64,000 nt of DNA from an uncultured delta proteobacterium (GCA_963708295.1 CAVPSJ010000015.1:192001-256000), one strand, 5' to 3'. Shown: positions 2,584-23,058, numbered from the stretch's first letter. Translations and numbers: made by a program. The notes: generated by a model from the letters alone, not told the origin.

Positions 2584-2636
2584 CCCACGCACCCTGCCCT
2601 CTCCCAGCTGGGGAGAGGGGAAGGGTGCGGGGAGGT
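2584..2636. repeat. REP-like GC-rich palindrome
   Basis: CCCTCTCCCAGCTGGGGAGAGGG core, flanked by CGCACCCT and AGGGTGCG. Confidence 0.7.
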
Positions 2637-2649
2637 GAAAGGAAAGGCC

Positions 2650-5766: not shown

Positions 5767-5770
5767 GTCA

Positions 5771-5957
5771 GGAGTTCATTGAGTTTGTTGTGTTCATTGT
5801 GTTCGTTGGGTTCAAGGAGCAGGTTTAAGGAGTTCATTGAGTTCATTGAGCTCGTTGGGTTAGCAGAGTCTTAAACCCAAGTAACTCAACTAACCCAAGC
5901 AACCCAATAAACCCAGGTAACCCAGTAACCCAATAAGCCCAACTAACCCAGCAACTT
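5771..5957. repeat. 9-mer repeat family A, G/T-rich block followed by its reverse complement
   Basis: GAGTTCATT/GTGTTCGTT units at 5771-5861, then AACCCAAGT/AACTCAACT units at 5874-5955. Confidence 0.9.
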
Positions 5958-6329
5958 ATGAAAATAACTCGGTTTGAAGATATCGATGCCTGGCAGGAGG
6001 CTCGAAAGCTGGTAAAGATGGTTTATGACGTGATTAAAACGAGTCCTAAATTCAGGAAAGATTTCCGATTGGTAAATCAGGTTCAAGACGCTGCGGTATC
6101 GGCTATGTCCAATATTGCTGAGGGATTTGCAAGGCGGAGTAATAGAGAGTTTGTCCAGTTTCTATTTATATCGAAAAGTTCAGCTGCCGAAGTTCAGAGT
6201 CAATTCTATGTGGCGTTAGATCAAGAATACGTCAACGAGGATGATTTTGAAAGGATTTATAATCAAGCTGAAATCGTTTCTAAACTGGATTCCGGTTTCA
6301 TCAAATATCTGAACTCGCAACCTAGATAA
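5958..6329 (+). CDS. Four helix bundle protein #1 (23S rRNA IVS protein / Avd-like family)
   Basis: [54 protein letters not shown]. Confidence 0.92.
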   Translation: MKITRFEDIDAWQEARKLVKMVYDVIKTSPKFRKDFRLVNQVQDAAVSAMSNIAEGFARRSNREFVQFLFISKSSAAEVQSQFYVALDQEYVNEDDFERIYNQAEIVSKLDSGFIKYLNSQPR

Positions 6330-6483
6330 CACGAGCGACTCAAGTAAAAGGGGTTCATTGGGTTCGTTGAGCCTGGTAGGTTTCTCGTGTTAAGTAACCC
6401 AAGTAACTCAATGAACTCAAGTAACCCAAGTAACCCAACAAACCCAAGTAACCCAACGAACCCAAGTAACTCAAGTAACGCAA
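6327..6483. repeat. Family A repeats downstream of FHB#1, running into the exosortase N-terminus
   Basis: GGGTTCATTGGGTTCGTTGA, then (AACCCAAGT)n. TAACACGAG/CTCGTGTTA inverted pair at 6327-6335 and 6384-6392. Confidence 0.9.
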
Positions 6484-7301
6484 TTCGAAGGGGGTTTTTG
6501 AAATCGGCTATTCTTGTTGCCTGTCTCCTCCTTCTCTATTTCCGTGTTTTGCAGGGATTGGTCTCTGATTGGCTCCATCTGCCGGATTTCTCCCATGGCT
6601 TTTTGATTCCGATTGTTTCCCTATATTTTGTTTATGAGAGGCGGAAACAACTCTCAGCCCTCAGCCGTTCCGGTAGCTGGACGGGCTTCGGGCTCTTACT
6701 CCTCGGGATCGTGCTCCTCCTATTTGGAAATCTTGCAAGCGAATACTTCACAATGAGATTTTCGATCTTAGTAGTCCTCGGGGGCATGGTTCTCTTTCTT
6801 TTAGGAAAGGAATGTTTTGGAAACCTTCTTTTCCCTATCGCCTTTTTGATTTTTATGATCCCCATCCCTTCCGTCCTCCTGGACCGGGTCACTTTTCCAA
6901 TGCAACTTTTCGCTTCCAAGGTGGCAGCGAAATCTCTTTACCTGATCGGCATCCCGGCACTGAGAGAGGGCAACGTTATTTTACTGGCAAACACTTCGTT
7001 AGAGGTGGCAGAGGCATGTTCGGGTATCCGGTCTTTGATCTCTTTGCTAGCGCTCTCCGTGGTGTTTGCTTATTTCAGCCAGAATTCAACGTGGAAGAGG
7101 ATTTTACTCGTTCTTTCAACGTTCCCCATCGCGATCATTGCCAATGCCGCACGTGTCACTGGGACCGGAATTCTTGCCCACCACTATGGCGATAAGGTCG
7201 CCCAGGGCTTCTTCCATGGCTTCTCGGGCTGGATTTTATTTGTGGTTGCGTTTATTTGTTTGTTTATTGTGGGAGGGTTGCTATCGAAAATGAAAAAGTG
7301 A
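6411..7301 (+). CDS. xrtA: Exosortase (EpsH/XrtA)
   Basis: DFSHGFLIP, FMIPIP, catalytic VAEACSGIRS, ANAARV, FFHGFSGW; multi-TM. Start is ATG 6411 or GTG 6387. Confidence 0.92.
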   Translation: MNSSNPSNPTNPSNPTNPSNSSNAIRRGFLKSAILVACLLLLYFRVLQGLVSDWLHLPDFSHGFLIPIVSLYFVYERRKQLSALSRSGSWTGFGLLLLGIVLLLFGNLASEYFTMRFSILVVLGGMVLFLLGKECFGNLLFPIAFLIFMIPIPSVLLDRVTFPMQLFASKVAAKSLYLIGIPALREGNVILLANTSLEVAEACSGIRSLISLLALSVVFAYFSQNSTWKRILLVLSTFPIAIIANAARVTGTGILAHHYGDKVAQGFFHGFSGWILFVVAFICLFIVGGLLSKMKK

Positions 7302-7502
7302 GCCAGTGCTGCAGTTCTGCAGTGCTGCTGTCAGGAGGTGCGAATGAAAATAGAGAGGTTCGAGGATATCCAAGGATGGCAAGAAGCACGATTGCTCACA
7401 AAGAAGATTTATGAACTTGCAAATAAGCTCCCCTTCAAGAGAGATAGGGGGCTTTGCAGCCAGATCCAACAAGCGTCGGTTTCCATCATGGCCAATATTG
7501 CT

Positions 7503-7792
7503 GGCTCCGCCCCGTAGGGAGTGGCTCTGAAATGTATTACGTTTACGCATTGCAAAGCGTTTTTAAGAAGCGAATCTATATAGGGCAAACAAAAGACCTG
7601 AATAAACGTTTGCAGTATCACAATAATGGGGCTGTAAAATCAACGTGTAAAGATAAGCCTTGGGAATTAATCGCTTTTCAAAAAGTTGAAAGCATAAGTG
7701 CAGCTAGGTGGATAGAAAGAGACCTAAAAAGGTCAAGAGGGAAAAGGATAAGATGGATTAAAGAAAAAAGTTTGTAGGCTACGCGCCGGAGG
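7503..7792 (+). mobile_element. GIY-YIG mini-element with 16 bp imperfect direct repeats
   Basis: GGCTCCGCCCCGTAGG (7503-7518) and GGCTACGCGCCGGAGG (7777-7792), each followed by GAG. Confidence 0.8.
7532..7777 (+). CDS. GIY-YIG nuclease family protein (81 aa)
   Basis: MYYVYALQS...IYIGQTKDLNKRLQYHNNG...ST...PWELI...E...AR.IERDLK. Confidence 0.9.
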   Translation: MYYVYALQSVFKKRIYIGQTKDLNKRLQYHNNGAVKSTCKDKPWELIAFQKVESISAARWIERDLKRSRGKRIRWIKEKSL

Positions 7793-7999
7793 GAGGGTTT
7801 TGATCGGCAATCCAAGAAGGAATTCAGTAGATTCTTATATTATGCGTCGGGGTCAGCCTCGGAAACTCAAAGTCATCTCTATGTAGCTTTGGATCAAAAG
7901 TATATCTCAGACGTGGATTTTCAGGAGACTTACAACCAGGCAAGGAAGACGAAGAGTCTGATCAACGGCTTTATTTTGTACTTAAAAGGTAAGAAGAAG

Positions 8000-8063
8000 T
8001 GACAGCAGCGCTGTAACACCGCAGTACTTTAAGAAACAGCAGCACCGCAGCACGGCAGCACAC
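8000..8063. repeat. 8-mer family B (CAGCACCG), inverted partner of 7305-7333
   Basis: TGACAGCAGCGCTGTA...CAGCAGCACCGCAGCACGGCAGCAC versus upstream GTGCTGCAGTTCTGCAGTGCTGCTGTCA. Confidence 0.85.
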
Positions 8064-8074
8064 TTAAACCTAAC

Positions 8075-8719
8075 ATGAATAGAAACTTAAAATTTGCCGC
8101 AGTCGTGATTATCCTTTTAGCTGCTGCGGCCCTGAATCACTATTTTTCCAAACCCGACATCTCGCTGCCTCGAAAGAGTCTGGCTGAATTTCCCATGGAG
8201 TTGGGCGATTGGACCACTCTAAGTGAGCAGAAAATAGAAGGCCGATCCATGGAGGTCCTTCAGGTTGACGACTACTTCATGAGATATTACAGCAATTCTG
8301 AAGGGAAGACCATCGGTCTCTATGTCGGTTATTTCAAATCCCAGAAGGAGGGGAAAGGAATCCACTCCCCAAGGCAGTGCCTGCCGGGTGCAGGTTGGGT
8401 TCCAGTCAATACTGAAGTCTATCAGATGAGCGCCCCCGGTCGTAATCTGAGGACAGTGCCGGTAAACAAGTTCGTCATGGGAAAAGGCCTGGACCGTCAG
8501 CTTTATCTCTTCTGGTATCAAGGCAGAGGTCGCGTCTATGCGAGCGAATACTGGAACAAGATTTACCTCATCTGGGATGGACTGACCAAGAAAAGGACCG
8601 ACGGCGCTCTGGTCAGAGTCAATAATCCCGTCATAGGAAATACCGAAGAAGCCCTCAAAACCCAATCCGACTTCATCCAGTTGTTTTTGCCGCTGCTTAA
8701 AGAGTATATTCCCGATTAA
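8075..8719 (+). CDS. epsI: Exosortase-associated EpsI family protein
   Basis: N-terminal TM, LYVGYFKSQ, IHSPRQCLPGAGW, FWYQGRGR, RTDGALVRV. Confidence 0.9.
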   Translation: MNRNLKFAAVVIILLAAAALNHYFSKPDISLPRKSLAEFPMELGDWTTLSEQKIEGRSMEVLQVDDYFMRYYSNSEGKTIGLYVGYFKSQKEGKGIHSPRQCLPGAGWVPVNTEVYQMSAPGRNLRTVPVNKFVMGKGLDRQLYLFWYQGRGRVYASEYWNKIYLIWDGLTKKRTDGALVRVNNPVIGNTEEALKTQSDFIQLFLPLLKEYIPD

Positions 8720-8740
8720 TAAATCAAACGATTGGGTATA

Positions 8741-9249
8741 GAGGACTGAGGGCCGCGGACTGAGGACTGAGTTAAAAATTATATGACTAATTAATGGGAG
8801 GGGTAAATTATGCCGACAGGGAGAATAGAGAAATTTGAGGATTTAATTGCTTGGCAAAAAGCCAGAGAACTGACCAAAAATGTTTACAGAGTTACTAAAA
8901 TTGGTGAATTCTTGAAGGATTTTGGACTTAGAGACCAGATTAGAAGAGCATCTGTTTCGATTATGTCAAATATCGCGGAAGGATTCGAACGAGGGGGACG
9001 CTCCGAATTTCATCAGTTCTTAGTGATCGCCAAGGGCTCCTGTGCAGAATTAAAATCTCAACTATATGTAGCGTTGGATGCTGAATTCATAGACATAGGA
9101 ACCTTCCAAAGTTTAGATGGCTTGGCAAGAGAAACAAGTCGACTTGTTGGTGGATTGCGTGCCGCAGTTTATAGGCAAAAGATGAAAACAAAATAGCTAT
9201 TAACCTCAGTCCTCATCGCTCAGTCCTCAGTACTCGGTCCACAGTCCTA
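8741..9249. repeat. 7-mer family C (GACTGAG upstream / CTCAGTC downstream) bracketing FHB#3
   Basis: TGAGGACTGAGTTAA at 8761-8775 versus TTAACCTCAGTCCTCA at 9200-9215, with further units out to 9249. Confidence 0.88.
8810..9196 (+). CDS. Four helix bundle protein #3
   Basis: [61 protein letters not shown]. Confidence 0.95.
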
Positions 9250-9259
9250 AGCAAAAAGG

Positions 9260-10456
9260 ATGTTCAGAACCCTACCCCCGACAGCGGCCCCTCTCCAATT
9301 CCAGGATCTTTTATCCGGGGTATTTTCGACTTTGGTCGACCACGGAGCCGAGTCCGGATTGAAGGGGCAAATCCAGGAATATTTCAAGGTGAAGCATGTA
9401 TTTCTCATTTCTTCCGGGAAGGCAGCGCTCTATCTCTCATTAAGAGCAATGCAGCAATCCTCTAAAAGGAAGGAGGTAATCATCCCGGCTTACTCGAGCT
9501 TTTGCCTGGCCTCTGCAGTCGCCCGCACAGGTCTGCCGGTTAAGTTATGTGATATTGATCCGGAAACGCTTGATTTTGATTTGGCTAAGCTGAAATCGAT
9601 GATCACTGAAGAAACCTTGGCCGTTATTCCGGTCCACAACTATGGTCTGGTCTGCAATATGAAGGAGATTCAGGAGATCGCCCTGGGAAAAGGCGCTTAT
9701 GTGCTTGAGGATGCAGCCCAGGCAGCAGGCGCCCAGCTCGGAAAGCGCAAGGCCGGTACGATCGGAGATATCGGCATCCTCAGCCTGGGACGGGGTAAGA
9801 ATATCTGTGCCCTGGGAGGAGGGGTTATTCTTACTGACCGAGAACCACTGGCGTTCCTGATCGACGAATTGCTGGACCTCTACCCGCGAGAACGTTCCTT
9901 CCCGGAATGTTCAAGTATGTTGACGGGCATGGGGCTGAGTCTTTTTCTTGATCCGGAAAGGTATGCTGTTCCTGCTCATCTGTCTTTTTTGAACCTTGGC
10001 GCCAACGTTTTCGACCCGGATTTTAGAATTGCCGGACTTTCGAACGTGAATGCGGAAGTAGGACGACGTGCCTTTTTATCCCTTGATCCATACAATGAAA
10101 TTCGCATACGGAATGCCCGCCTCCTCGACCATAACCTTTGCCAGAATGAGTCGCTGAGAATTCCGAAGCCCCTTGTTGGCGGACAGCCTGTTTACCTGAG
10201 GTTTCCGATTGTATTTCCGGAAAAAGAGGTGCGTCGCCGTGTGTTCTGGATACTAAGGCGGAGGCGGCTTGGAGCAAGCCGTAGCTACCCGGCCCCGCTA
10301 AACGAGATTCCCGCTTTTAGAAGATATCTTTGCGTTGAGGAGGATTATCCCGGAGCAAAGTTTGTCGCGGATAGAATCCTCACGCTGCCGACGCATCCTT
10401 ACGTGAACGAGGATGATCTCCAAAAAATAGTATCAAAAATTGACAGAATAACATGA
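9260..10456 (+). CDS. DegT/DnrJ/EryC1/StrS-family PLP aminotransferase
   Basis: SSGKAAL, VLEDAAQA, SLGRGKN, ILTLPTHP. Confidence 0.88.
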   Translation: MFRTLPPTAAPLQFQDLLSGVFSTLVDHGAESGLKGQIQEYFKVKHVFLISSGKAALYLSLRAMQQSSKRKEVIIPAYSSFCLASAVARTGLPVKLCDIDPETLDFDLAKLKSMITEETLAVIPVHNYGLVCNMKEIQEIALGKGAYVLEDAAQAAGAQLGKRKAGTIGDIGILSLGRGKNICALGGGVILTDREPLAFLIDELLDLYPRERSFPECSSMLTGMGLSLFLDPERYAVPAHLSFLNLGANVFDPDFRIAGLSNVNAEVGRRAFLSLDPYNEIRIRNARLLDHNLCQNESLRIPKPLVGGQPVYLRFPIVFPEKEVRRRVFWILRRRRLGASRSYPAPLNEIPAFRRYLCVEEDYPGAKFVADRILTLPTHPYVNEDDLQKIVSKIDRIT

Positions 10457-10679
10457 ACTGGGTTTATTGAGTTCCAAATAACAGCAGCACCGCAGCACTA
10501 TTAATGGGTTACTTGGGTTTGTTGAGTTCATTGAGTTTATCGGGTTCAAAACTCATAAGTCAAGACTTGAAGTTAGTAACTCATTAACTCACTTGCTTAT
10601 TTTCTTTTGCCTCATTCCAACAGCAGCACCGCAGCACTTTTAAACAACTCAAAACTCATAACTCACCATTCAAAATTCC
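10457..10679. repeat. Composite intergenic repeat tract (families A, B, F, G)
   Basis: GGGTTACTTGGGTTTGTTGAGTTCATTGAGTT, CAGCAGCACCGCAGCAC x2, AACTCAAAACTCATAACTC. Confidence 0.85.
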
Positions 10680-11798
10680 ATGTTAAATATATTAACCATC
10701 GACCTCGAAGATTACTTCCAGGTTCACGCTTTTTCAAGGGTCATCAGATATGAAGACTGGGACAAATTCGAATGCCGCATCGAACGCAACACCGACCGCC
10801 TCCTCGAAATTCTTAACGGTTCGCCAATAAATGACCGCAGCACAGCAGCACTTCATAACCCATTAACTCATTCACTCAATAACCCATCACGTGAGGTTTC
10901 AGAACCGCAGCGCTGCAGCACTTCATCACCCAATAACTCAATAACTCATTCACTCAATACCTCATTAACTCAAAGGGGCAAGGCGACTTTCTTTGTTTTG
11001 GGCTGGATCGCCGAACGATATCCTGATCTGGTTCGAAGGATTCAAAAAGAAGGTCATGAGATCGCCTGCCATGGTTACGCACACCAGCTTGTCTACACTC
11101 AATCCAGAGACGAATTCAGACAGGACGTCAGGAGAGCCAAATCTATTCTTGAAGATATCACAGGCAAAGAGGTCATCGGTTATCGTGCACCGACTTACTC
11201 CATAACAAATAAGTCAAAGTGGGCTTTTGACGTTCTGGTCGAAGAAGGATTCAAATATGACTCCAGCATCTTCCCGATTCGGCACGATTTCTACGGTATG
11301 CCTGAAGCCCCAAGGTTTCCTTTCGTCGTTTCCTTGAACGGAAACGACAATGTTGAGTTTTCAGTTTTGAATTTTGAATTTAATACTGCATCACTTAATA
11401 ACTCATTAACTCATTCACTTATTAACCCATCATCTGACATTTCAGCACCGCAGCACCGCAGCACCGCAGCACATTATTCAATTATTGAATTTCCCCTTTC
11501 CACCGTGAAACTCTTCGGCGGCAATTTCCCCGTCTCCGGAGGCGGCTACTTCAGGCTGTTCCCCTATTCACTGATAAGAAAGGGTCTCAAAAGCATTAAC
11601 GAGAAGGAAGGGAAGCCATTTATATTTTACATGCATCCCTGGGAGATTGATTTTGAGCAACCAAGAATCAAGGGTGTTTCTCCGAGATCAAAATTCCGTC
11701 ACTACGTCAACCTCAATAAAACTGGATTTAGGCTCAAGAGACTCCTATCCGATTTCCAATTCTCAAATATTCGGCAGCTCTTAACTCAAAATGCATAA
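10680..11798 (+). CDS. Polysaccharide deacetylase, PEP-CTERM locus type (TIGR03006-like), with two repeat-derived insertions
   Basis: [53 protein letters not shown]. Confidence 0.92.
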
Positions 11799-11799
11799 C

Positions 11800-11955
11800 C
11801 TCCTTAATAAAATTTGAATTTTAAGTGTTGAATGTTGAATTAACTCAAAACTCAAAATTGGTGGTTTATTTTGTTATTAAGAAACCGCAGCACCGCATCA
11901 CTGCTTCATCGGTCATTCAAAGCTGGCAACTCAAAATTCACACTTCATAACTTCT
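11800..11955. repeat. 7-mer family F (TTTTGAA/TTCAAAA) inverted tract plus family B
   Basis: TTTGAATTTTAAGTGTTGAATGTTGAATT followed by AACTCAAAACTCAAAATT; CCGCAGCACCGCATCAC. Confidence 0.8.
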
Positions 11956-11967
11956 TTTAAGCATAGG

Positions 11968-11996
11968 TTGACATTTCGTTTTAGGAAGTGTACACT
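11968..11996 (+). promoter_or_regulatory. sigma70 promoter of TA pair 1 with palindromic candidate operator
   Basis: TTGACA-N17-TACACT; the AAGTGTACACTT palindrome overlaps the -10. Confidence 0.75.
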
Positions 11997-12026
11997 TATT
12001 TGAAAAGCGTCATGTGAGGGCTGGCC

Positions 12027-12260
12027 ATGGAAATAAATGCAAAGCAGGCAAGAGCGAAACTGAGCTCCCTTCTCAAAAGGGTGGAAGAGGGCGGTGAGGT
12101 GGTAGTTCTTCGCCGCGGTAAAAGAATTGCTCGCCTGGTACCCGCCGGGAAGAAACAGGCAAGGCTACCCACCTTGAAGGAATTCCGGGCCTCGATCCGG
12201 ATCAAAGGGGAACCGTTGAGCACGGGTGTCATAAGGGGCAGACAGAGGGAGCGTTTCTAA
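12027..12260 (+). CDS. Phd/YefM-family antitoxin
   Basis: INAKQARAKLSSLLKRVEEGGEVVVLRRGKRIARLVP. Confidence 0.9.
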   Translation: MEINAKQARAKLSSLLKRVEEGGEVVVLRRGKRIARLVPAGKKQARLPTLKEFRASIRIKGEPLSTGVIRGRQRERF

Positions 12261-12682
12261 TGGTTTATGTCGATACAAGCGTGTTAGTCGCCTATTATTG
12301 CCCCGAACGCCTGAGCGAGAAAGCTGAGGAGCTGCTTACAAGTTATCTTAGGCCTGCGATCAGTTCTCTAACAGAGGTTGAATTATTCTCGGCTGTCTCA
12401 GGAAAAGTCCGAAGGAAGGAAATCAATCTAAAAGATGCCGGTCGGGTGACAGCGAGGTTTTTGGCCCATAGGGATGCTGATCACTATACGTATATTCCAG
12501 TTGAGGGACACCATTATCGTCTGGCAAGGGATTGGATTGGAATGTTTAAAATGGAGCTCCGAACTCTCGATGCAATTCATCTGGCAGTGGCCTCGTCAGA
12601 AGGACTGACTCTCCTAACATCGGATAAGGGACTCTTCAAATCAGCGAGCGCCCTGGCGCAGGACGCCATCCTGCTGGAATAG
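12260..12682 (+). CDS. vapC: VapC-family PIN toxin
   Basis: VYVDTSVLV, E.FSA, LRTLDAIHLA, LLTSDKGL; translationally coupled (TAATG). Confidence 0.9.
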   Translation: MVYVDTSVLVAYYCPERLSEKAEELLTSYLRPAISSLTEVELFSAVSGKVRRKEINLKDAGRVTARFLAHRDADHYTYIPVEGHHYRLARDWIGMFKMELRTLDAIHLAVASSEGLTLLTSDKGLFKSASALAQDAILLE

Positions 12683-12697
12683 ATTCTGGCCGCATCC

Positions 12698-12945
12698 ACA
12701 ATTCAAAATTCATAACTCAAAATTGATAAATTGTTAGCTCATTCACTCAATAGCTCAAGGAACCCAAGTTACCCAACGAACCCAATAACCCGATAAACTC
12801 AAAAACACAGCAACACAGCAGGACTCATTAACTCAATGACCTCATAACTCATTATCTCATTCAAAATTCAAACCTGGTAACTTAAAAACTCAATAACTTA
12901 TTCTTATAAGTACCGCAGCACATAGTAACTCATTCCCTCATCTCC
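12698..12945. repeat. C/A-rich composite repeat tract between the TA pairs (families F, G, A, B)
   Basis: TTCAAAATTCATAACTCAAAATT, AACCCAAGTTACCCAACGAACCCAATAACCCGATAAACTC, ACCGCAGCAC. Confidence 0.85.
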
Positions 12946-12968
12946 TTATGAACGATCTGAACATTCCC

Positions 12969-12997
12969 TTGACAATCTGCCTTGAGTGGTGTACACT
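12969..12997 (+). promoter_or_regulatory. sigma70 promoter of TA pair 2 (probably near-leaderless mRNA)
   Basis: TTGACA-N17-TACACT, GTGTACAC palindrome, ATG at 13007. Confidence 0.72.
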
Positions 12998-13006
12998 GTG
13001 ACTACA

Positions 13007-13306
13007 ATGAAGGTGAATATCAGAAAAGCCAGAGAGAACTTCTCGGAGATCATCAACCGAGTCACCGCAAAAGGGGAGAGAGTTATCCTGACCTCAAGAG
13101 ATAAGCCCAAGGCAGCCATCGTGAGTCTCAAAGATGCAGCGGCCATAGGAGACAAGTCCATGAGGAAGGCAAAAAGGCTCCATCAGCTGGAAAAAATCAG
13201 GAAGATGAGACAGAAACTGGCTCGAAAGAGATTAACGGACGATTCACTGGAGGCATTGGGAAAGATCAGAGAGGAAAGGGTTGAAGAACGATCAAGTGGC
13301 GGTTGA
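13007..13306 (+). CDS. Phd/YefM-family antitoxin
   Basis: VNIRKARENFSEIINRV...ERVILTSRDKPKAAIVS. Confidence 0.88.
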   Translation: MKVNIRKARENFSEIINRVTAKGERVILTSRDKPKAAIVSLKDAAAIGDKSMRKAKRLHQLEKIRKMRQKLARKRLTDDSLEALGKIREERVEERSSGG

Positions 13307-13706
13307 TGCCAGTTTTCTTTTGAAAATGTTTCTTCCCGAGAACAAGAGTGATCAAGCAGAAGAACTCTGGAGGGCTTGGGTTGGAGATCATGTAGAAATC
13401 GTTGCCCCTACCCTTATTATATTTGAAGTGTCTTCTGTCATAAGGAACAAGGTTTTTAGGGGTATGTTGACCGAGAGAGAGGGTAGAGAATTGATAAGTA
13501 TGCTGAGACAACTTGACATTTCATTAGTCTATGATGAGGAGCTCTTGGACATAGCATGGGAAATCGGGACCATCCTTAATAGCCCGAATCTATACGACTG
13601 TTTCTATCTTGCCCTGCCGAAACTGCTAAGGATACCTCTTTGGACAACGGATAAGAAACTATTCCAATCCGCCCAAAAAGAATTTGCATTTGTAAATCTA
13701 TTGTAG
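13281..13706 (+). CDS. vapC: VapC-family PIN toxin
   Basis: VAVDASFLLK, APTLIIFEV, LYDCFYLAL, LWTTDKKL. Confidence 0.88.
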   Translation: MKNDQVAVDASFLLKMFLPENKSDQAEELWRAWVGDHVEIVAPTLIIFEVSSVIRNKVFRGMLTEREGRELISMLRQLDISLVYDEELLDIAWEIGTILNSPNLYDCFYLALPKLLRIPLWTTDKKLFQSAQKEFAFVNLL

Positions 13707-13795
13707 GCCGACCTCACGCATTGCAACACCAATCACCCAAGTAACCCAATAAACTCAAATGACAGCATCACCGCAGTACTTATTAACTTAGGATT

Positions 13796-14896: not shown

Positions 14897-14912
14897 CAAT
14901 ACTTAAGGGAGG

Positions 14913-15437: not shown

Positions 15438-15447
15438 ACAACGGTGT

Positions 15448-15643
15448 GGCAGCAAGCAACCAGCACCCGGCAACCAGAATCGAGTATCCAGTTTCTTGCT
15501 TCTGGTTTCTGGTTTCTTGATCTCCGATTCTAACCAGTAACGAGCAACTAGAAACTAGCAACTAGAAACGAGCAGCAAGCAACCAGCATCCAGCAACCAG
15601 ACAGCCAGAAACCAGCAACCAGAACCAGCAACCAGCAACCAGA
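15448..15643. repeat. 7-mer family E (CAGCAAC/CAGAAAC) with an internal inverted block
   Basis: GTTTCTTGCTTCTGGTTTCTGGTTTC, then (CCAGCAA/CTAGAAA)n directly up to the ATG at 15644. Confidence 0.9.
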
Positions 15644-17111
15644 ATGAAGATTTTATACATCGCCCACCGTATTCCTTATCCTCCGAACAAGGGGGATAAG
15701 ATTCGGTCTTTTAATGAAATAAAGTACCTTTCCCAAAAGCATGAAATTCATCTTACCTGTTTAGCAGACGATCCCAAGGACCTAAAATATGAAGAGGAAT
15801 TAAAAAAATATTGTAAAGCGGTCAGGGTTGTTCTTATCAATCCCCAATTGGCGAAGTTGAAAAGTATCTTTTATCTATTGACCAAGCAACCATTGACCAT
15901 CCCTTATTTCTATTCATCAAAGCTCCAACAGACTGTTGACCAATTGCTATCGACCAATGACTACGATGCAATATTTTGCTTTTCATCTCCCATGGCTGAG
16001 TATGTCTTTAGATCCAGGTTGCTTGTTTCTAGTTTCTTGCAGCTTGATGAATACCGGCAACCAGCGACCAGCGGCCAGCAACCAAAAATCAGTAACTAGA
16101 AACGAGCGACTGGAAACAAGTGACCAGCAACCGGAAACCAGCAACCGGAAACCAGCATCCAGCAACCAGCAACCAAGATTAATCATGGACTTTGTCGACG
16201 TCGATTCAGACAAGTGGGCACAATACTCGAAATATGCACGGTTTCCAATGTCCTGGATCTATGCATTGGAAGGCCGAAGGTTGGCTGATTATGAAAGGAA
16301 CGTTGCGGAGACCTTTGATCATTCGATTTTTGTAACGGAAGCAGAGGTGAAAATATTTAAGGGTAAAAATCCCCATATCCAAAACGTTTCCGTTATCTCC
16401 AACGGCGTTGATCTTGACTACTTTTCCCCCAATTATCTTCACCAGGAATCAACTATCGACCAACGACCATCGGCAAATGAACGAGGTTCTTCGACTATCA
16501 ACCAACATCCAGCAACCATCAACCAGCCTCCGGAAACGAGCAACAAGCAACAAGCACCCAGCACCCAGCCTCCAGAATCAAGCAACCAGCAACCAGTTAT
16601 CGTTTTCACCGGCGCCATGGACTACTATGCCAACATAGACGGAGTGGTCTGGTTTGCAAAAGAAATTTTGCCTTTGATTAAGAAAGAAATCCCTGAAATA
16701 CAGTTTTTCATTGTTGGCAGCAACCCAACGAAAGAAGTTCTCTCTTTGTCTTCAAACAATGGTGTTACGGTAACAGGGTATGTCCCCGATACCAGGGAAT
16801 ATTTAAGTAAGGCGACGGTTGTCGTTGTCCCATTAAGAATAGCCAGAGGCATTCAGAACAAGATCCTTGAAGCCATGGCTATGGGTTTGCCTGTGGTCGC
16901 CACTCCGCAGGCATTTGAAGGAATTGATGCCCGGCCCAAGAGAGATCTGATCTTGGAAGAAAATACAGAGAAGTTTGGGGAGAGTGTAGTTCAACTCATA
17001 AGGAACATCTATCTGAGGAAATGCCTTGGTGATAATGCAAGAAAAGCTGTCGAAGACAACTACAGCTGGGTGAAGAACTTGGGCAAGTTAGACGAAGTCA
17101 TGTCACCTTAG
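15644..17111 (+). CDS. GT4 glycosyltransferase, PEP-CTERM/EpsH1-associated (TIGR03087-like); frameshift inside a repeat insertion
   Basis: AHRIPYPPNKGDKIRS, DFVDVDSDKW, FTGAMDYYANIDGV, ARGIQNKILEAMA. Confidence 0.9.
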
Positions 17112-17159
17112 GTTTCCTCTATTTGCAAGACTTGCACCTCCTCCTTTTAGGTTCTCCAG

Positions 17160-18323
17160 ATGATAGAGAATGGGCGACCGTTAATAGTGCATATCATTCG
17201 TCGGCTTAGCATGGGTGGTTTGGAAAATGGATTGGTCAATTTAATCAACCATATGGATCCGGCGCGCTATCGTCACGCTATCTTATGCCTGAAGGATTAC
17301 AACGAGTTTTCTGAGCGGATTATACGAGAGGACGTAGATGTCATCGCTCTGAACAAACGAGAGGGACAGGATTTAAGTGTCCATATCCGGTTGTGGAGAG
17401 TTCTTCGAAAATTGCAACCTGCCATTGTCCATACGCGTAATCTCCCGGGATTGGAATATCTGGTTCCCTCTACATTCGCCGGCGTACCAGCACGGATTCA
17501 TGGCGAACACGGACGTGATATCTACGACCTGGATGGTTTGAATAAAAGATATATCCTGCTTCGTAAGCTTGTAAACCCTTTTACTCATCAATACATTGCG
17601 GTAAGCGGGGAGCTTGCGAATTGGCTGATTCGGAGTGTGGGCATCCGTCCTGATCGGGTGACGCAAATTTATAATGGAGTTGACCTCAAACGGTTTCATC
17701 CCCGTGATGGCGCGCGACCTTCGTTGGGACCACCGGACTTTGCATCCGCAGAAAACCTGGTTATAGGGACGGTGGGTAGAATGGAAACGGTCAAGAACCA
17801 GCTTACATTGGTCCAGGCCTTCCTGCAGCTTCTTGATCAAGAACCGAAAGCCCGAGAAAGGTTAAGGTTAGTTATCATAGGTAATGGTCCATTGCGGTTG
17901 GAGGCTGAAAAGCTATTGAAGGATGCGAAAGCGGACCGTCTTGCATGGCTACCTGGAGAGCGAGATGATGTCCCTGCGATCATGCGATCTTTGGATCTAT
18001 TTGTCCTGCCCTCTCTTAGAGAGGGAATTTCTAATACGATTCTTGAGGCGATGGCTAGTGGCCTACCCGTCGTGGCTACCCGGGTAGGAGGAAACCCTGA
18101 ATTAGTCGAAGAGCGGAAAACTGGATTACTGAATCCCCCTGCAAATTCGATACCTTTGGCTGAAGCTATTCGATCCTATCTTCTACATCCGGAATTACTG
18201 TCTATCCATGGCCAAGCGGGCCGAAAACGAGCAGAAGAGTGCTTTAGTTTAGAGAAAATGGTAAGTGGATATACGGCTGTTTATGATAAATTGCTGGAGC
18301 GAAGGAAAAGGGCGGATAGATAA
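17160..18323 (+). CDS. GT4 glycosyltransferase (TIGR03088-like)
   Basis: GGLENGLVNLIN, HGEHGRD, EGISNTILEAMASGLPVVATRVGGNPELV. Confidence 0.92.
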   Translation: MIENGRPLIVHIIRRLSMGGLENGLVNLINHMDPARYRHAILCLKDYNEFSERIIREDVDVIALNKREGQDLSVHIRLWRVLRKLQPAIVHTRNLPGLEYLVPSTFAGVPARIHGEHGRDIYDLDGLNKRYILLRKLVNPFTHQYIAVSGELANWLIRSVGIRPDRVTQIYNGVDLKRFHPRDGARPSLGPPDFASAENLVIGTVGRMETVKNQLTLVQAFLQLLDQEPKARERLRLVIIGNGPLRLEAEKLLKDAKADRLAWLPGERDDVPAIMRSLDLFVLPSLREGISNTILEAMASGLPVVATRVGGNPELVEERKTGLLNPPANSIPLAEAIRSYLLHPELLSIHGQAGRKRAEECFSLEKMVSGYTAVYDKLLERRKRADR

Positions 18324-18391
18324 ATGGGTGAAGGAGCCGAATGGGTGAACAAATATTTGCTGGTTCACTACTTACCCATTCAGTTACCATG
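18322..18391. repeat. Small inverted ATGGGTGA / TACCCATT tract
   Basis: AATGGGTGAA x2 after the stop codon, then TTCACTACTTACCCATT before the next start. Confidence 0.6.
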
Positions 18392-18408
18392 GAAGGAAGA
18401 GCGTTGAT

Positions 18409-20284
18409 ATGTGCGGCATCTGCGGAATCTACAATTTCAAGACTAAAGAGCCGGTTCGTTCCACTCAGCTCAAAGACATGGCAGATACGATGGTCCACCG
18501 CGGACCGGATGACGAAGGCTTCTATATTTCGGGAGAAACGGGTCTCGGACATCGGAGGCTCTCTATCATTGATCTTGGAGGCGGGCATCAACCCATGTCC
18601 AATGAGGATGGGACCGTATGGGTCGTTTTTAATGGGGAAATTTATAATTTTACAGAGTTGTATGATGTCCTGGTAGGAAAAGGGCACATCTTTAAAACCC
18701 GGTCTGATACGGAAGTCATTATTCATCTGTACGAAGAAAAGGGTGAAGAGTGTTTTCAATATTTTCGTGGAATGTTTGCGATGGCCATCTGGGATGAGAA
18801 GCATAAAAAGCTTCTTCTCGCTCGCGATAGGGTTGGTAAGAAGCCGCTTTTCTACTTCTATGATGGAGATCGCATTGTCTTTGCCTCAGAATTAAAGGCG
18901 ATTCTAAAAGCACCGGATATTCCAAGAGAGATTGATCTTGAAGCCCTTTCGGATTACTTTTCTTTCTTTTACATTCCAGTGCCAAAATCCATCTACAAAA
19001 AGATCCGTAAGATTCGTCCTGGCCATTATGCTCTTATTGATGATAATGGAATTCGAGAATCGGAATACTGGGATATTAGCTTCGCTCATCCCGTTGAACT
19101 TTCCGAAGAGAAATGGTGTGAAAAGCTCCTTGAGGTTTATCAGGAGGCGGTTCGAATTCGTTTGAGTGAGTGACGTGCCTCTCGGAACTTTTCTCTCCGG
19201 AGGCGTGGATTCCTCATCGGTGGTTGCATTAATGAGCCAGATAAAGAAGGAACCTGTTCAGACCTCCTCCATTGGTTTTGATGAACAAGAGTTCAATGAG
19301 CTTATTTACGCAAGGGAGGTATCGTCTCTATTTAACACCGATCATCACGAAAGGATTGTGCGACCTGATGCAGTAGGAATTGTCGAGAAACTTGCCTGGC
19401 ATTATGATGAACCTTTTGCGGATTCTTCAGCGGTCCCCACCTACTATGTCTCGAAGGTTGCCCGCGAAAAGGTCACCGTCGCACTGTCTGGAGACGGAGG
19501 CGATGAGAATTTCGCAGGCTACCGGCGTTATTATTTTGATCGTCAAGAAAATAAATTGCGGTCCTTCTTACCATTGGGTATTCGGCGACCAATTTTCGGC
19601 ACATTAGCATCCCTTTATCCAAAGGCAGATTGGGCGCCAAGGATCTTTCGCGCGAAATCAACCTTCGAGTCTCTTTCGTGTTCACCCCTTGAGGGATATT
19701 TTCGATCGGTTTCGGTCTTTCGTCCCGAACAAAAGCAGAAATTACTGCATCCGGATGTTCATAAAGCATTAGCCGGGTATAATTCTTCGGATGTATTTAA
19801 ATTTTACTATGACAAGGCTGATACCGATGATCCGCTATCTCGCATTCAGTACCTGGATATCAAGACCTATCTTACGGATGATATCCTTGCAAAAGTGGAT
19901 CGGGCAAGCATGGCTAACTCATTGGAAGTTCGTGCACCTATTCTCGATCACAAATTCATGGAGCTCGCTGCTACGATTCCGTCTTCGCTTAAACTTCAGG
20001 GAAGAAATGGCAAGTACATTTTCAAAAAAACCCTTGAAGGAGTTCTTCCGAAGGAAATTTTATATCGAAACAAGATGGGATTCGGCGTGCCATTGGCACG
20101 GTGGTTCCGTAAAGAATTAAAAGACTTGGCCTACGAGACTATTTTCAATAATACCCGTGATGACTTTTTTCAAAAATCTACGATCGAACAGATTTGGAAG
20201 CAACATCAAAGTGGGCTCCGTGACCGTTCAACACCCTTGTGGACTCTTTTTATGTTTCGACTATGGCAAAGGATTTTTTCGTAA
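18409..20284 (+). CDS. asnB: Asparagine synthase (glutamine-hydrolysing)-like amidotransferase, XrtA-system type; frameshift ~19165
   Basis: MCGICG, HRGPD, HRRLSIID, FNGEIYN, LSGGVDSS, EPFADSS, SGDGGDE, KVDRASM. Confidence 0.92.
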
Positions 20285-20366
20285 GTACGAGACGATGGAA
20301 TGAGGGAATATTTTGAATGTTGTTTAGATATTTATTCTTATAACGCTTTGCGCGATGCTCAGGGTC

Positions 20367-21563
20367 ATGAAAGTACTTACCTTTACTACGTTATATCCTA
20401 ACAATATCTGGCCAAATAACGGTGTTTTCATTCAGGAACGAATGACTCATTTCGCCAGGTTGAACGGATGCAAAGTCATAGTGGTTGCGCCTGTTCCTTA
20501 TTTTCCGCCGATTAACCTCAGTCACAGATGGCTATTCTCTCAGGTAACGCAACAAGAAATTATAGAAGGGCTTGAAGTGTATCATCCTCGGTACTTTATG
20601 ACGCCTAAGGTGGGAATGGTTTTTTACGGTTTGATGATGTTTCTGTCGGCGCTTCCTGTTTTGAAAAAGATCCAGATGGATTTTGATTTAATAGACGCGC
20701 ATTATGTCTATCCGGACGGATTTGCGGCGACTTTATTGGGCAAGTTTTTCAAGAAGCCTGTGGTGGTGTCAGCAAGGGGCAGCGATATTAATCTCTATGG
20801 AGAATTTCCGATCATCCGAAGATTCCTTAGGCACACTCTTTTAAAGGCAAATAGGGTAGTAGCTGTATGCGAGGCTCTGAAAAGAGGAATCATCCAGTTA
20901 GGAGTGCCAGAAGAAAAAGTGTCAGTTATTCCGAATGGAGTGGATAGTTACAAATTTTTCCCGACTCCGAGAGAAGAAGTTCGAAGAAGGTTAAAACTCC
21001 CGGACAAGAAGATTATTCTTTCAGCTGGGCATCTGACACCCAATAAAGGATTTGATTATCTAATCAAGGCACTCAAAATCCTCCGAACAGACTTTGACGA
21101 GAAAAGTATCTATCTGGTAATCGTGGGGGAAGGAAAGTTTCGGAAAGAGCTCGAAAAAATTATTTCTATGCTTAATCTTGGGGAACACGTAAGATTAGCA
21201 GGTATCATCCCTCATAAGGAAATGGGTGATTGGTATAGCGCGGCGGATCTCTTCTGCCTCGCAAGTGGTCAAGAAGGCTGGCCGAATGTAATTCTTGAAT
21301 CCTTAGCCTGTGGAACACCAGTGGTCGCAACTTCTGCCGGAGGCATTCCTGAGATTATTAGCTCTAACGGGGTCGGAATCTTAGCTGAAAGGACGGAACA
21401 GGATATTGCCGGAAAGATTTCTATTGCGTTGAAACAATCATGGAATCGGGAAGAAATTGTGAAATTCGCCGAAAAATATACTTGGAATCAAGTTGCCCTG
21501 CGCGTTTACGATGTTTTCAAATCGGTATTGAATAAGAAATATTCCAGCTCATCCACGCATTAA
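20367..21563 (+). CDS. GT4 glycosyltransferase
   Basis: DAHYVYPDG, ARGSDIN, EGWPNVILESLACGTPVV. Confidence 0.9.
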   Translation: MKVLTFTTLYPNNIWPNNGVFIQERMTHFARLNGCKVIVVAPVPYFPPINLSHRWLFSQVTQQEIIEGLEVYHPRYFMTPKVGMVFYGLMMFLSALPVLKKIQMDFDLIDAHYVYPDGFAATLLGKFFKKPVVVSARGSDINLYGEFPIIRRFLRHTLLKANRVVAVCEALKRGIIQLGVPEEKVSVIPNGVDSYKFFPTPREEVRRRLKLPDKKIILSAGHLTPNKGFDYLIKALKILRTDFDEKSIYLVIVGEGKFRKELEKIISMLNLGEHVRLAGIIPHKEMGDWYSAADLFCLASGQEGWPNVILESLACGTPVVATSAGGIPEIISSNGVGILAERTEQDIAGKISIALKQSWNREEIVKFAEKYTWNQVALRVYDVFKSVLNKKYSSSSTH

Positions 21564-21592
21564 CTCATTCACATTTATAGGTCCATTCACCC

Positions 21593-22966
21593 ATGAAACT
21601 AATGCTCGTTGCCGGTGCTCGCCCCAACTTTATGAAAATCGCCTCCATCATCGATGCGATAAGAGAGCGCAACGATTCAATTGAAAACTCAAAACTCAAA
21701 ATTCAACATTTATTAGTGCATACCGGTCAGCATTACGATGATTCAATGTCAGAAGCTTTTTTCAGAGACTTAAATTTGCCTAAGCCGGATATTTACTTAG
21801 AAGTAGGGTCCGGGACCCATGCTGCCCAGACTGCCGAAATTATGAAGCGTTTTGAGCCAGTGCTGTTGGAGCATCAACCCGATGTTGTTATCGTCGTGGG
21901 TGATGTCAACTCAACCGTCGGTTGCGCCCTCGTCGCCTCTAAAATTACCTATCCAACATCCGGCAGCCGGAAACGAGCAACAAGCAACCGGAATCGACCT
22001 TTGGTCGCCCACGTTGAAGCCGGACTTCGATCTTTTGATCGCACCATGCCCGAGGAAATCAATCGACTTCTAACGGATGCCGTCTCAGATTTCCTTTTTA
22101 CGACTGAAGAAAGTGCCAATGAGAATTTAAGGCGTGAAGGTGTTCCTAAAGATAGGGTTTTCTTTGTCGGAAATACCATGATCGATACGCTCCTTAAACA
22201 CAAGGAAATGGCACAGAAATCGACTATTCTTAATAAGCTTGGCCTTTCAACCAGGAACCAGCAACCAGCGACCGGCAACCGGATACTTCCTTACGCTGTC
22301 CTCACCCTCCACCGTCCATCAAATGTTGACAATAAGGAGACGTTCCGGAATATATTGGAAGCTTTGAAGGAAGTAGCCAAAGATCTTCCTGTTATCTTCC
22401 CGGCCCATCCTCGAACATTAAACCGCATCAGGGAATTCGGCCTTGAAAACTATTTTCATTTTCCGTCTCAGCCTTTAACCCTCAGTTCACAGTCCAAAGC
22501 TGTGCGACCTAATTCCACCAAGCTTCAGCCTCAGAGCTCCAAGGGTGTTGGCTCACTTGCCTCCAACCTTCAACCTCTAGCCTGCGGTCTCCACTGCGTG
22601 GAGCCGCTTGGTTATCTCGATTTTCTCTGCCTGATGTCAAATTCAAAGCTTGTTTTAACTGATTCCGGTGGGATGCAAGAGGAAACCACGGTATTAGGCA
22701 TTCCTTGTATTACCTTAAGGGAGAATACGGAGCGCCCGGTGACCATCGCTTTCGGCACGAATACCCTTGCCGGAATTCAAAAAGACCAAATTATCAGCGC
22801 AGCTCTCTCGGCATTAAGGAAATATGATTCTATATCATCCAATACCGTGTTTAACACTCAGCACTCAACACTCGGCACTCAACACTCATTGTGTCCTCCT
22901 CTATGGGATGGAAAAGCAGGTCAACGAATTGTTAGTATTTTAGTCGATAGTCTATTAGATTCTTAG
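21593..22966 (+). CDS. wecB: UDP-N-acetylglucosamine 2-epimerase (non-hydrolysing) with five repeat-derived insertions
   Basis: GARPNFMK, HTGQHYD, GDVNST, HVEAGLRSFDR.MPEEINR, HRPSNVD, TDSGGMQEE, RENTERP, WDGKAG.RI. Confidence 0.95.
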   Translation: MKLMLVAGARPNFMKIASIIDAIRERNDSIENSKLKIQHLLVHTGQHYDDSMSEAFFRDLNLPKPDIYLEVGSGTHAAQTAEIMKRFEPVLLEHQPDVVIVVGDVNSTVGCALVASKITYPTSGSRKRATSNRNRPLVAHVEAGLRSFDRTMPEEINRLLTDAVSDFLFTTEESANENLRREGVPKDRVFFVGNTMIDTLLKHKEMAQKSTILNKLGLSTRNQQPATGNRILPYAVLTLHRPSNVDNKETFRNILEALKEVAKDLPVIFPAHPRTLNRIREFGLENYFHFPSQPLTLSSQSKAVRPNSTKLQPQSSKGVGSLASNLQPLACGLHCVEPLGYLDFLCLMSNSKLVLTDSGGMQEETTVLGIPCITLRENTERPVTIAFGTNTLAGIQKDQIISAALSALRKYDSISSNTVFNTQHSTLGTQHSLCPPLWDGKAGQRIVSILVDSLLDS

Positions 22967-23058
22967 TCAAGCAACTAACAACCAGCAACTAGCGACGGGC
23001 CGCCAGCATCCAGAAACTGGCAACCAGTAACTAGCATCCAGCAACCAGCAACCAAAAA
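22967..23058. repeat. Family E C/A-rich tract directly before the next ATG
   Basis: CCAGCAACTAGCGAC...CCAGCATCCAGAAACTGGCAACCAGTAACTAGCATCCAGCAACCAGCAACC. Confidence 0.88.

Follow-up and report, generated by a model that had tools for sequence, protein, structure and literature searches.

The stretch of DNA considered here (hereafter the window; 64,000 nucleotides, G000:C15:192001-256000, with positions counted from its first letter) comes from a Thermodesulfobacteriota metagenome-assembled genome (MAG) of 4.95 Mb in 20 contigs, 91% complete and with 5.6% contamination, and carries on its + strand an exosortase-type exopolysaccharide (EPS) operon that holds four genes of the PF05635 four-helix-bundle (FHB) family. 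The closest EpsH loci, with 83%, 80% and 70% identity, come from MAGs that bear the label Thermodesulfobacteriota or delta proteobacterium. A Pfam scan of the open reading frames (ORFs) of the window identifies, along the operon, a P-loop protein with an AAA_31 match (2635-4269), a Bac_transf sugar transferase (4357-5766), the exosortase EpsH (6387-7301), EpsI/DUF3485 (8075-8719), a DegT aminotransferase (9260-10456) and a DUF3473 polysaccharide deacetylase (10680-11798). The further + strand genes of the operon are two Phd/PIN pairs, a FemAB-like gene, four GT4 glycosyltransferases, an asparagine-synthase-like gene and a UDP-GlcNAc 2-epimerase-like gene. The first-pass annotation of this DNA had noticed four FHB genes amid the EPS genes, which the Pfam matches bear out for FHB1, FHB3 and FHB4 and, in two pieces, for FHB2. 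It had also proposed that each FHB gene is paired with its own family of short repeats (families A to D, besides families E to H without a cognate FHB in the window), together forming either a mobile cassette system or an RNA-level regulatory system for long polysaccharide operons.

The four FHB genes, all on the + strand, are each flanked by inverted repeats, which in all but FHB4 consist of tandem arrays called with Tandem Repeats Finder (TRF). FHB3 is a 128-aa PF05635 ORF (8810-9196; 119.9 bits, the curated Pfam cut-off being 33.8 bits) with its own GGGAGGGG Shine-Dalgarno site; it is preceded by a 5' arm of 4.4 GAGGACT units (8741-8771) and followed by a 3' arm of 6.4 CCTCAGT units (9204-9248), the reverse complement of the 5' arm, and the start codon of DegT lies 12 nt past the end of this 3' arm. 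FHB1 (5958-6329; 123 aa, 109 bits) has compound arrays, in which GTTCATTGA-type units (5774-5861) and then AACCCAAGT units (5874-5955) lie on the 5' side, and GGGTTCATT (6351-6369) and then ten AAGTAACCC units (6392-6483) on the 3' side, so that the AACCCAAGT/GGGTTCATT pair is nested within the GTTCATTGA/AAGTAACCC pair; the last of these arrays is contained in a 5' extension of the EpsH ORF. RNA folding pairs the arms around the ORF in both cassettes, with a minimum free energy of -157.6 kcal/mol (z -3.94) for FHB3 and z -3.29 for FHB1. FHB2 is a broken PF05635 gene (7344-8002, with start, stop and frame read from the sequence) between a 5' arm of CAGTGCTG units (7304-7331; TRF array 7304-7328) and a 3' arm of GCAGCACC units (8003-8061; TRF array 8039-8061), both also recovered by an inverted-repeat scan. 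Finally, the FHB4 cassette (14913-15437; ORF 14917-15369 with a likely ATG at 14965, 92.6 bits) has no tandem arms and is flanked by a single 10-bp inverted repeat, AGGTGTGAGG at 14913-14922 and CCTCACACCT at 15428-15437.

FHB3 is similar to PDB 2gsc_A (XCC0516, a solved pentameric four-helix bundle; E 5.8e-15). Across 16 aligned FHBs, S50 and E57 (FHB3 numbering) are invariant, in agreement with RxxxSxxxNxxE, which is part of the motif reported for 23S_rRNA_IVP-type proteins (PMC3936711); SNIAEG was also read in FHB sequences. By profile match and motif, the FHB proteins of the window are thus assigned to PF05635 / 23S_rRNA_IVP.

The break in FHB2 is caused by a nested element of about 290 bp (7503-7792, ends uncertain by 1-2 nt) with short imperfect inverted ends and a GIY-YIG match (Pfam E 1.2e-13), whose open frame spans 7454-7777 and whose ORF at 7532-7777 encodes 81 aa. 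The N-half of FHB2 runs to about 7502 and the C-half starts from 7793; the corresponding Pfam pieces (7362-7505 and 7790-7969; 47.8 and 56.7 bits) cover profile positions 1-48 and 47-106, and the arm spacing of 710 bp falls to about 420 once the element is subtracted. The insertion point lies between the ANIA and EGF codons, within the conserved NIAEGF motif. An uninterrupted FHB2, in which 7501 is joined to 7793, was found in one contig of each of four metagenome runs (X1-X4), with sides of 30-74 nt, and an uninterrupted homologue is present in a related genome (G004). Conversely, an 87% identical GIY-YIG element occupies the same motif of a different, FHB1-like gene in another genome (G011:C172, L134), and the FHB matches of several relatives also break near profile position 44-47. 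These comparisons suggest a site-specific insert that targets the NIAEGF motif of FHB genes and that is predicted to be of homing type. As in GIY-YIG homing endonuclease genes, a small ORF sits at one conserved coding motif, here in two genomes and two FHB paralogues; in contrast to them, the FHB2 insert has only 81 aa and lacks a recognisable intron or intein context.

The mirror-image arrangement extends to the rest of the genome. The array upstream of an FHB gene is the reverse complement of the one downstream, and the unit varies from cassette to cassette: reverse-complementary TRF arrays lie on both sides of 8/12 genomic FHB loci, each with its own unit, and FHB1 is alike but compound. 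The units at FHBs elsewhere in the genome are AAGGTT, GACACGGA, CGTGTC, GTAATCA, CGCAGAG and AGTCAAGT. A cassette therefore comprises about 0.46-0.5 kb, with a 5' tandem arm of 6-9-nt units, a Shine-Dalgarno site (present in each cassette read for it), a PF05635 ORF of ~125 aa and a 3' arm that mirrors the first as its reverse complement. Over the whole genome, 99 inverted TRF-array pairs lie within 3 kb of each other, and all six that are spaced 385-432 bp contain an FHB; 58 of the 99 are plain hairpins with a gap below 200 bp, and other wider pairs surround ordinary genes and are built from the common units of the genome. A seed-based genome scan for any inverted repeat bracketing 250-1700 bp recovered 62 segments, eight of which hold an ORF matching the FHB profile (inner length 398-532 bp) and a ninth of which brackets the split FHB2. 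Judged by arm sequence and ORF size, the remaining segments include IS-like elements, DUF559 and GIY-YIG minicassettes with palindromic ends, and ordinary genes.

PF05635 genes are present in 21/21 related genomes, with 2-18 matches each. Their arms were scored as the best local alignment of the 200 nt upstream with the reverse complement of about 260 nt downstream. In 20 related genomes, 22/28 FHBs reach a score of at least 14, which is attained by 0.2% of 1495 random sites and by 0.3% of 685 array-anchored sites; under a laxer scoring 41/46 FHBs reach at least 13, the control rates belonging to the stricter scoring only. Among metagenome contigs with FHB3-clade genes, 52/69 score at least 14 (80 were fetched via an alignment of five FHB sequences, and 11 were dropped for short flanks or N). 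Plasmid FHBs score at least 19 in 7/8 cases, from Nostoc sp. ATCC 53789, N. punctiforme, Calothrix, Pseudanabaena, Geminocystis, Riemerella and Azospirillum; the arms of the N. punctiforme PCC 73102 cassette (plasmid pNPUN02, L126) are AGGAGTCAG. The Azospirillum FHB lies inside a 23S rRNA gene (Rfam LSU_rRNA_bacteria) and is a classical intervening sequence (IVS), whose arms are likewise tandem units. FHBs adjoining EpsH in five other MAG loci have the same arm layout. No FHB was found in four genomes of other phyla reached via their EpsH loci (Nitrospirales, Zixibacteria, Bryobacterales and Ignavibacteriales), and a fifth genome, deltaproteobacterial, had 12. All five FHB-bearing loci are within the eight densest in arrays out of 79, and 8/74 FHB-less loci also reach at least 10 bp/kb; the arms themselves count as arrays, and this link between array density and FHBs is weak evidence.

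Comparisons between cassettes and between sites indicate that the arms and the ORF travel together. Cassettes whose proteins are 60-97% identical share their arm unit, and their flanks have no detectable similarity in 29/33 pairs; the four syntenic pairs were set aside from later pair counts. In one case (G000:C7:63623 vs L108 in genome G009), the two cassettes are 91% identical along exactly 460 bp, a stretch delimited by the outer ends of their arms, and the sequences beyond are unrelated. The sites of the window cassettes are also variably occupied in close relatives: FHB1 is absent from its site in L003, L002, G009 and G006, where ORF-less array hairpins are found instead; at the FHB2 site, the EpsH-EpsI spacer, L003 has another FHB cassette, whose arms are TTAATAAG, and L001 a plain spacer of 110 nt; and FHB3 is kept with GAGGACT arms in L003. 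Arms and ORF thus pass to descendants and to new sites together, as a single sharply bounded piece. The mobile-cassette half of the earlier proposal, which was to be checked by a comparison of filled and empty sites, is upheld by these mirror arms, by their joint movement and by sites that are filled, empty or differently filled among relatives. Metagenome contig joints that skip FHB1 (5794 to 6431 and similar) were also considered as empty sites and rejected, their sides being only 21-32 nt long and within repeats.

The repeat unit also follows the FHB clade, as the first-pass annotation had predicted. Arm similarity correlates with protein identity (Spearman 0.18, Mantel p = 0.002), and in non-syntenic pairs arm 7-mers are shared by 19/19 pairs at 70% protein identity or more, by 8/23 at 60-70% and by 59/1044 below 50%. 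Many of the pairs that share a unit are saturated at four-fold degenerate sites (identity 0.12-0.40), as exemplified by the N. punctiforme plasmid cassette and a Desulfobacterota clade with AAGTCAG units, whose proteins are 71-76% identical. Since the unit is still shared when four-fold sites are saturated, its sequence is conserved beyond neutral decay. This conservation would fit a cassette protein that recognises its own unit; a stem able to pair in several registers and evolving slowly by compensatory changes could also account for it.

Arrays are by no means confined to the FHB genes. With TRF arrays of score 30 or more, families A (AACCCAAGT; 5874-5955, 6392-6483 and 13962-14025), B (CAGCACCG; 7304-7328, 8039-8061 and 11443-11472), C (CCTCAGT; the two FHB3 arms), E (AACCAGC; 15532-15642, 16053-16175, 16499-16596, 22248-22280 and 22970-23054), F (AACTCAA/AATTCAA) and G (TAACTCAT) of the first-pass annotation were recovered; its family D amounts to the 10-bp inverted repeat of FHB4, and no array of its family H (AACTATC) was recovered in the window at this score. 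The annotation had regarded repeats equally dense away from FHB loci as telling against its proposal, and this is in part what the genome presents: period-6-9 arrays cover 0.78% of it, with 717 distinct canonical units of period 7-9, and yet the densest 10-kb bin of the genome lies in the operon (G000:C15:200000-210000, window 8000-18000), with 933 bp in such arrays compared with 467 bp in the runner-up and a median of 59 bp. Counting 14-mers with at most two mismatches, the operon holds 16/53 of the genome's matches to family A, 11/41 to B, 22/37 to E and 9/33 to G, and per family 14/16, 10/11, 21/22 and 9/9 have the C/A-rich orientation on the + (sense) strand. The commonest units of the genome are nearly absent from the operon (window 5700-23100), with 0/243 matches for AAATCCG and 1/304 for AAATTCG. 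Such a unit set of its own could mean that the operon came from elsewhere or that arrays have spread locally. The same array families recur in other genomes of the genus, and contigs from the runs X1-X4 pile up over stretches of family-A array.

Several of these arrays lie in intergenic spaces. An ORF-less array hairpin (15451-15642), made of GTTTCTG units (15491-15517) and 16 AACCAGC units (15532-15642), extends up to the start of a glycosyltransferase, and a mixed patch of families A, B, G and F fills the space before the deacetylase (10457-10679). Both Phd/PIN toxin-antitoxin cassettes (12027-12682 and 12986-13706) have array-filled spacers (span 11799-13795), in line with the repeats previously noticed at these cassettes, and the first stands between inverted TTGAATG (11814-11840) and AATTCAA (12700-12724) arrays with a gap of 859. 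An AGCAACC array (22970-23054) precedes the next glycosyltransferase. Start codons of several EPS genes follow directly after C/A-rich, G-poor arrays and, by eye, have no visible Shine-Dalgarno site (8062-8074, 9249-9259, 10666-10679, 15632-15643 and 23045-23058); the FHB ORFs, unlike these array-led genes, have strong ones by eye. The arrays before EPS starts might serve as unstructured leaders or Rho entry sites.

Other arrays lie within enzymes, as had been claimed, and comparison with orthologues identifies them as in-frame insertions in three genes. The deacetylase contains two in-frame patches (about 10830-10982 and 11349-11491, span 10826-11491) that are insertions relative to the L006 and L001 orthologues, so that the protein has 372 aa instead of 306; the FemAB-like gene has gained 22 aa through an in-frame AACCCAAGT array (13962-14025); and the epimerase-like gene (from 21684) contains four to six in-frame low-complexity or array patches, its product having 457 aa vs 361 aa in the orthologue. 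Besides the EpsH 5' extension, a PEP-CTERM-type glycosyltransferase (15644-17111) is also affected by an array hairpin (16021-16175) and a further array (16499-16596). Its reading frame switches inside the hairpin, from ORF 15644-16099 to ORF 15936-17111, and the gene may be a pseudogene, encode an enzyme made in two pieces or be misassembled. Families E, F and G, which lack an FHB in the window, form the arms of FHB cassettes in other genomes: family E, the unit of the ORF-less hairpin at 15451-15642, in two cassettes of another genome (L111 and L114), family F in L097, and family G in L091 and in the second L003 cassette. Because of this correspondence, ORF-less hairpins, solo arms and in-frame patches may be derivatives, footprints or landing pads of FHB cassettes.

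The cassettes have the same orientation as the upstream gene in 44/45 cases and as the downstream gene in 41/45, in operons of many kinds. The eight FHB loci outside the window lie between MTHFR subunit genes, beside an acyl-CoA dehydrogenase gene, in another sugar-nucleotide operon, between thiD/thiN and a permease gene, between a histidine kinase and a sigma-54 regulator gene, between two liv ABC ATPase genes, in a liv operon and in a QueH fusion. In the Pseudanabaena galeata plasmid pPg_01 (L125), an FHB gene stands between cas6 and cas4, with long GCTTTTA/AAAAGCC-type arrays on both sides. Since co-oriented cassettes occur in so many kinds of operon, as well as in 23S rRNA and between cas genes, they are not EPS-specific regulators, and this half of the first-pass proposal is not supported. 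Links of 23S_rRNA_IVP genes to cas loci have been presented previously (PMC3936711; figure legend in PMC10910872), and this co-occurrence, including that with CRISPR-like arrays, may be explained by a passenger that settles between co-transcribed genes.

Two of these loci present further features. The second sugar-nucleotide operon with an FHB cassette (L144, G000:C7:60600-66900) has several fragmented genes, among them a GDP-mannose-dehydratase-like gene in ORFs of 135 and 201 aa and a DegT piece of 138 aa. The QueH fusion (L148:2456-3379, G000:C13:218855-219778) is a 307-aa ORF in which epoxyqueuosine reductase QueH is fused to a PF05635 domain, with arrays that lie inside the ORF, upstream of its FHB part; a 314-aa open frame of another genome (G012) has a PF05635 match over the same profile positions as the fusion (11-101).

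[quoted passage not shown] This IVS has tandem heptamers upstream of the ORF, in a number that varies by strain, and is cut by RNase III in vitro; Leptospira, Salmonella and Xanthomonas IVS work is cited therein. Both have a PF05635 protein (PDB 2gsc), a length of about 430-500 nt, terminal inverted repeats that form a stem and leave the ORF in its loop, and arms with tandem heptamers of variable number, and the Azospirillum rRNA copy has tandem-unit arms as well. In contrast to the rRNA IVS, for whose rRNA copies cutting by RNase III is known, the arms of the window cassettes are wholly made of tandem units that differ by cassette, and there are four cassettes in one operon rather than an insert in an rRNA helix. 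Because all four lie between protein-coding genes, the window cassettes are IVS-like without being rRNA IVSs.

Taken together, we consider it probable that the four FHB genes are cassettes of one kind, the same as the ORF-bearing 23S rRNA IVS, placed in the intergenic spaces of the EPS operon. Such a cassette would have no promoter of its own and would be transcribed by read-through from the host operon. Its arms would pair in the RNA, and the resulting stem, judging from the published rRNA IVS work, could be cut by RNase III, a gene for which is present in the genome, thereby releasing the FHB mRNA and severing the operon transcript at that place. Cassettes that live by read-through transcription and RNase III release would therefore be selfish passengers rather than dedicated regulators of EPS synthesis. 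More speculatively, the FHB pentamer, as a relative of the nucleic-acid-binding protein Avd, might bind its own tandem units and so aid spread or processing.

Nevertheless, this interpretation must be taken cautiously, as a number of observations weigh against it. RNase III processing of the cassettes is proposed by analogy, no RNA run having been found that contains the stretch at window 5700-9300. The arms have no RNA signature in their mismatches, 68 of 303 being of G.U type on the sense strand and 55 of A.C type; they could equally well act at the level of DNA alone. The G-rich arm comes first in 42/48 cassettes, less so in ORF-less hairpins (32 vs 19); we considered this polarity, together with Shine-Dalgarno-like 4-mers (62 vs 0), as a sense-strand signal and rejected it, because the polarity reads identically on both strands and hence gives no pointer to a sense transcript. 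No obvious target-site duplication was seen at the one boundary pair aligned base by base, and no enzyme for cassette mobility has been identified. Arms are also not universal: FHB4, with a score of 10, and the FHB of the PCC 7120 gamma plasmid, which has no arms and scores 7.5, fall below threshold, as do 5/46, 6/28 and 17/69 FHBs of the sets above, and L059, from a genome with 12 FHBs, has no arrays. The coupling of unit and clade has its exceptions, since two cyanobacterial cassettes with 36% protein identity both use GGGAAAA, and Riemerella has GGTTCAAG with a protein that shares 29-33% identity with the AAGGATTC clade. Moreover, 1338 period-6-9 arrays stand against 12 FHB loci, most of them far from any FHB, and perhaps not all genomic arrays descend from cassettes.

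Some of these points would also be accommodated if the arms acted at the DNA level only, the cassette being a small non-autonomous transposon or a hairpin/cruciform-dependent element, with terminal inverted arrays to which an enzyme encoded elsewhere binds, and the RNA stem a by-product. The sharp arm-to-arm borders between unrelated flanks agree with this, as do the absence of a G.U excess over A.C mismatches, the symmetry of arm polarity between the strands and the existence of DUF559 and GIY-YIG minicassettes that are also bracketed by inverted repeats. However, the near-universal co-orientation with host genes is unexpected for a DNA transposon, the units vary between clades, unlike the ends of one transposon family, and Pfam scans of the window and of the genomic FHB loci found no transposase adjoining the cassettes, in addition to the lack of an obvious target-site duplication at the pair aligned. 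Since the rRNA copies of the family are, moreover, known substrates of RNase III (PMC4990558), we regard a DNA-only role as unlikely, if the foremost of the alternatives. A different relationship between arm and ORF would hold if the arms belonged to the target, an armless FHB gene inserting into the loops of resident array hairpins resembling repetitive extragenic palindromes or terminators. The abundance of plain hairpins among the inverted pairs (58/99) and the ORF-less array hairpins at the empty FHB1 sites of L003 and G009 would be consistent with such targets, all the more as the resident array at the EpsH start of G009 belongs to the family of the FHB1 arms. Arms, however, move with the ORF into unrelated flanks, with similarity ending at the outer arm ends, and the unit tracks the FHB clade across genomes and phyla, which makes resident arms an improbable explanation.

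The reading of FHBs and repeats as RNA-level regulation of long polysaccharide operons, for example with arrays as Rho entry sites or translation leaders bound by the FHB protein, draws on the concentration of 4/12 genomic FHB loci and of the densest repeat bin in this operon, on the nearly uniform C/A-rich sense strand of the arrays and on the arrays that abut several start codons lacking a Shine-Dalgarno site by eye. It is at odds with the FHB cassettes of unrelated operons, of rRNA and of cas loci; cassettes also come and go among close relatives with the same EPS genes, and one of the four FHBs is broken by the GIY-YIG element. We consider this reading slightly less probable even than resident arms. 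Finally, the 5.6% contamination of the MAG and two frame-broken genes in the operon could raise the suspicion that the arrays are mis-assembled low-complexity sequence; the same architecture is nevertheless found in complete plasmids of cultured strains, in 20 other genomes and in 69 metagenome contigs, and the same array families recur across the genus, so an assembly artefact appears extremely improbable.

Interpreted as IVS-like passengers, the cassettes can be set apart from several other known systems. Tandem 7-nt intergenic units with many families per genome are characteristic of the short tandemly repeated repetitive (STRR) sequences of cyanobacteria. The arrays described here share both traits with them, and the cyanobacterial plasmid FHBs are flanked by such arrays, whereas the host of the window is a member of Thermodesulfobacteriota and its units are of 6-9 nt. 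Full-text searches brought up no publication in which STRR-type repeats are connected with IVS or S23p genes. Rickettsia palindromic elements and miniature inverted-repeat transposable elements (MITEs) are, respectively, small in-frame gene insertions and elements with inverted ends that lack a transposase, and both traits are encountered here; in contrast to them, the in-gene patches are direct tandem arrays, mostly not palindromes, and the cassette ORF is conserved and is not a known transposase. Nor do the cassettes conform to terminal-inverted-repeat transposons or MITEs in their ends, as there is no obvious target-site duplication at the boundary pair aligned and the arm units differ between cassettes. 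To our knowledge, the large PF05635/TIGR02436 family has no known function outside diversity-generating retroelements. With Avd of these retroelements the FHB proteins share a homologous four-helix-bundle fold (PMC10053308); a reading of the locus in these terms was rejected, as no RVT_1 match was found in the 91%-complete genome nor among the scanned window ORFs.

Members of PF05635/TIGR02436 have been read as ribosomal proteins or as possible Cas-associated proteins (PMC3936711; figure legend in PMC10910872). Our analysis instead presents non-rRNA copies that keep the IVS architecture, relocate as discrete units and have a repeat unit coupled to their clade past synonymous saturation. Among titles and the beginnings of abstracts, we found no description of inverted tandem-repeat arms at non-rRNA PF05635 genes, with the proviso that a 1993 Leptospira IVS paper may bear on it; neither did the literature search find a description of relocation as discrete units or of a GIY-YIG element targeting FHB genes. 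Passenger status would give a simple reason for the presence of PF05635 genes inside cas, EPS and metabolic operons, and a class of short tandem repeats hitherto unexplained would be tied to a gene family. For annotation, it follows that array patches in enzymes and split FHB genes should be treated with caution as probable products of mobile DNA. A wider and more doubtful possibility is that PF05635 is the trans factor of undescribed mobile elements without a transposase, whose cis sites would be the inverted arrays of tandem units, with each protomer of the pentameric ring reading one unit, and whose non-autonomous derivatives or footprints would be the ORF-less array hairpins, the solo arrays, the in-frame patches and, by extension, the cyanobacterial STRR-type repeats. 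If so, the 23S rRNA would be just one of the places occupied, as an IVS, by a much more widespread element found in the operons of various bacterial phyla.

Some minor observations concern other parts of this genome. The P-loop gene (2635-4269) contains a 147-nt tandem repeat at 3033-3350 (2.2 copies, 74% matches), upstream of the part matching AAA_31. The asparagine-synthase-like gene (18409-20284) is split into a GATase ORF and an Asn_synthase ORF, with the break near 19155-19166; by eye, 4 nt are duplicated in tandem at this break (AGTGAGTGA), and the resulting frameshift falls immediately ahead of the SDVPLG motif. Other minicassettes, encoding 95-136 aa and bracketed by their own inverted repeats, are located at G000:C15:117362-117842, C16:131238-131689, C14:41702-42397, C13:194806-195186 and C19:36019-36373. 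By eye, they are of DUF559-like and GIY-YIG families, with ends that include palindromic CCTCCCC...GGGGAGG-type repeats, and the one at C14:41702 ends in tandem CCAAATT/ATTTGGA arrays.

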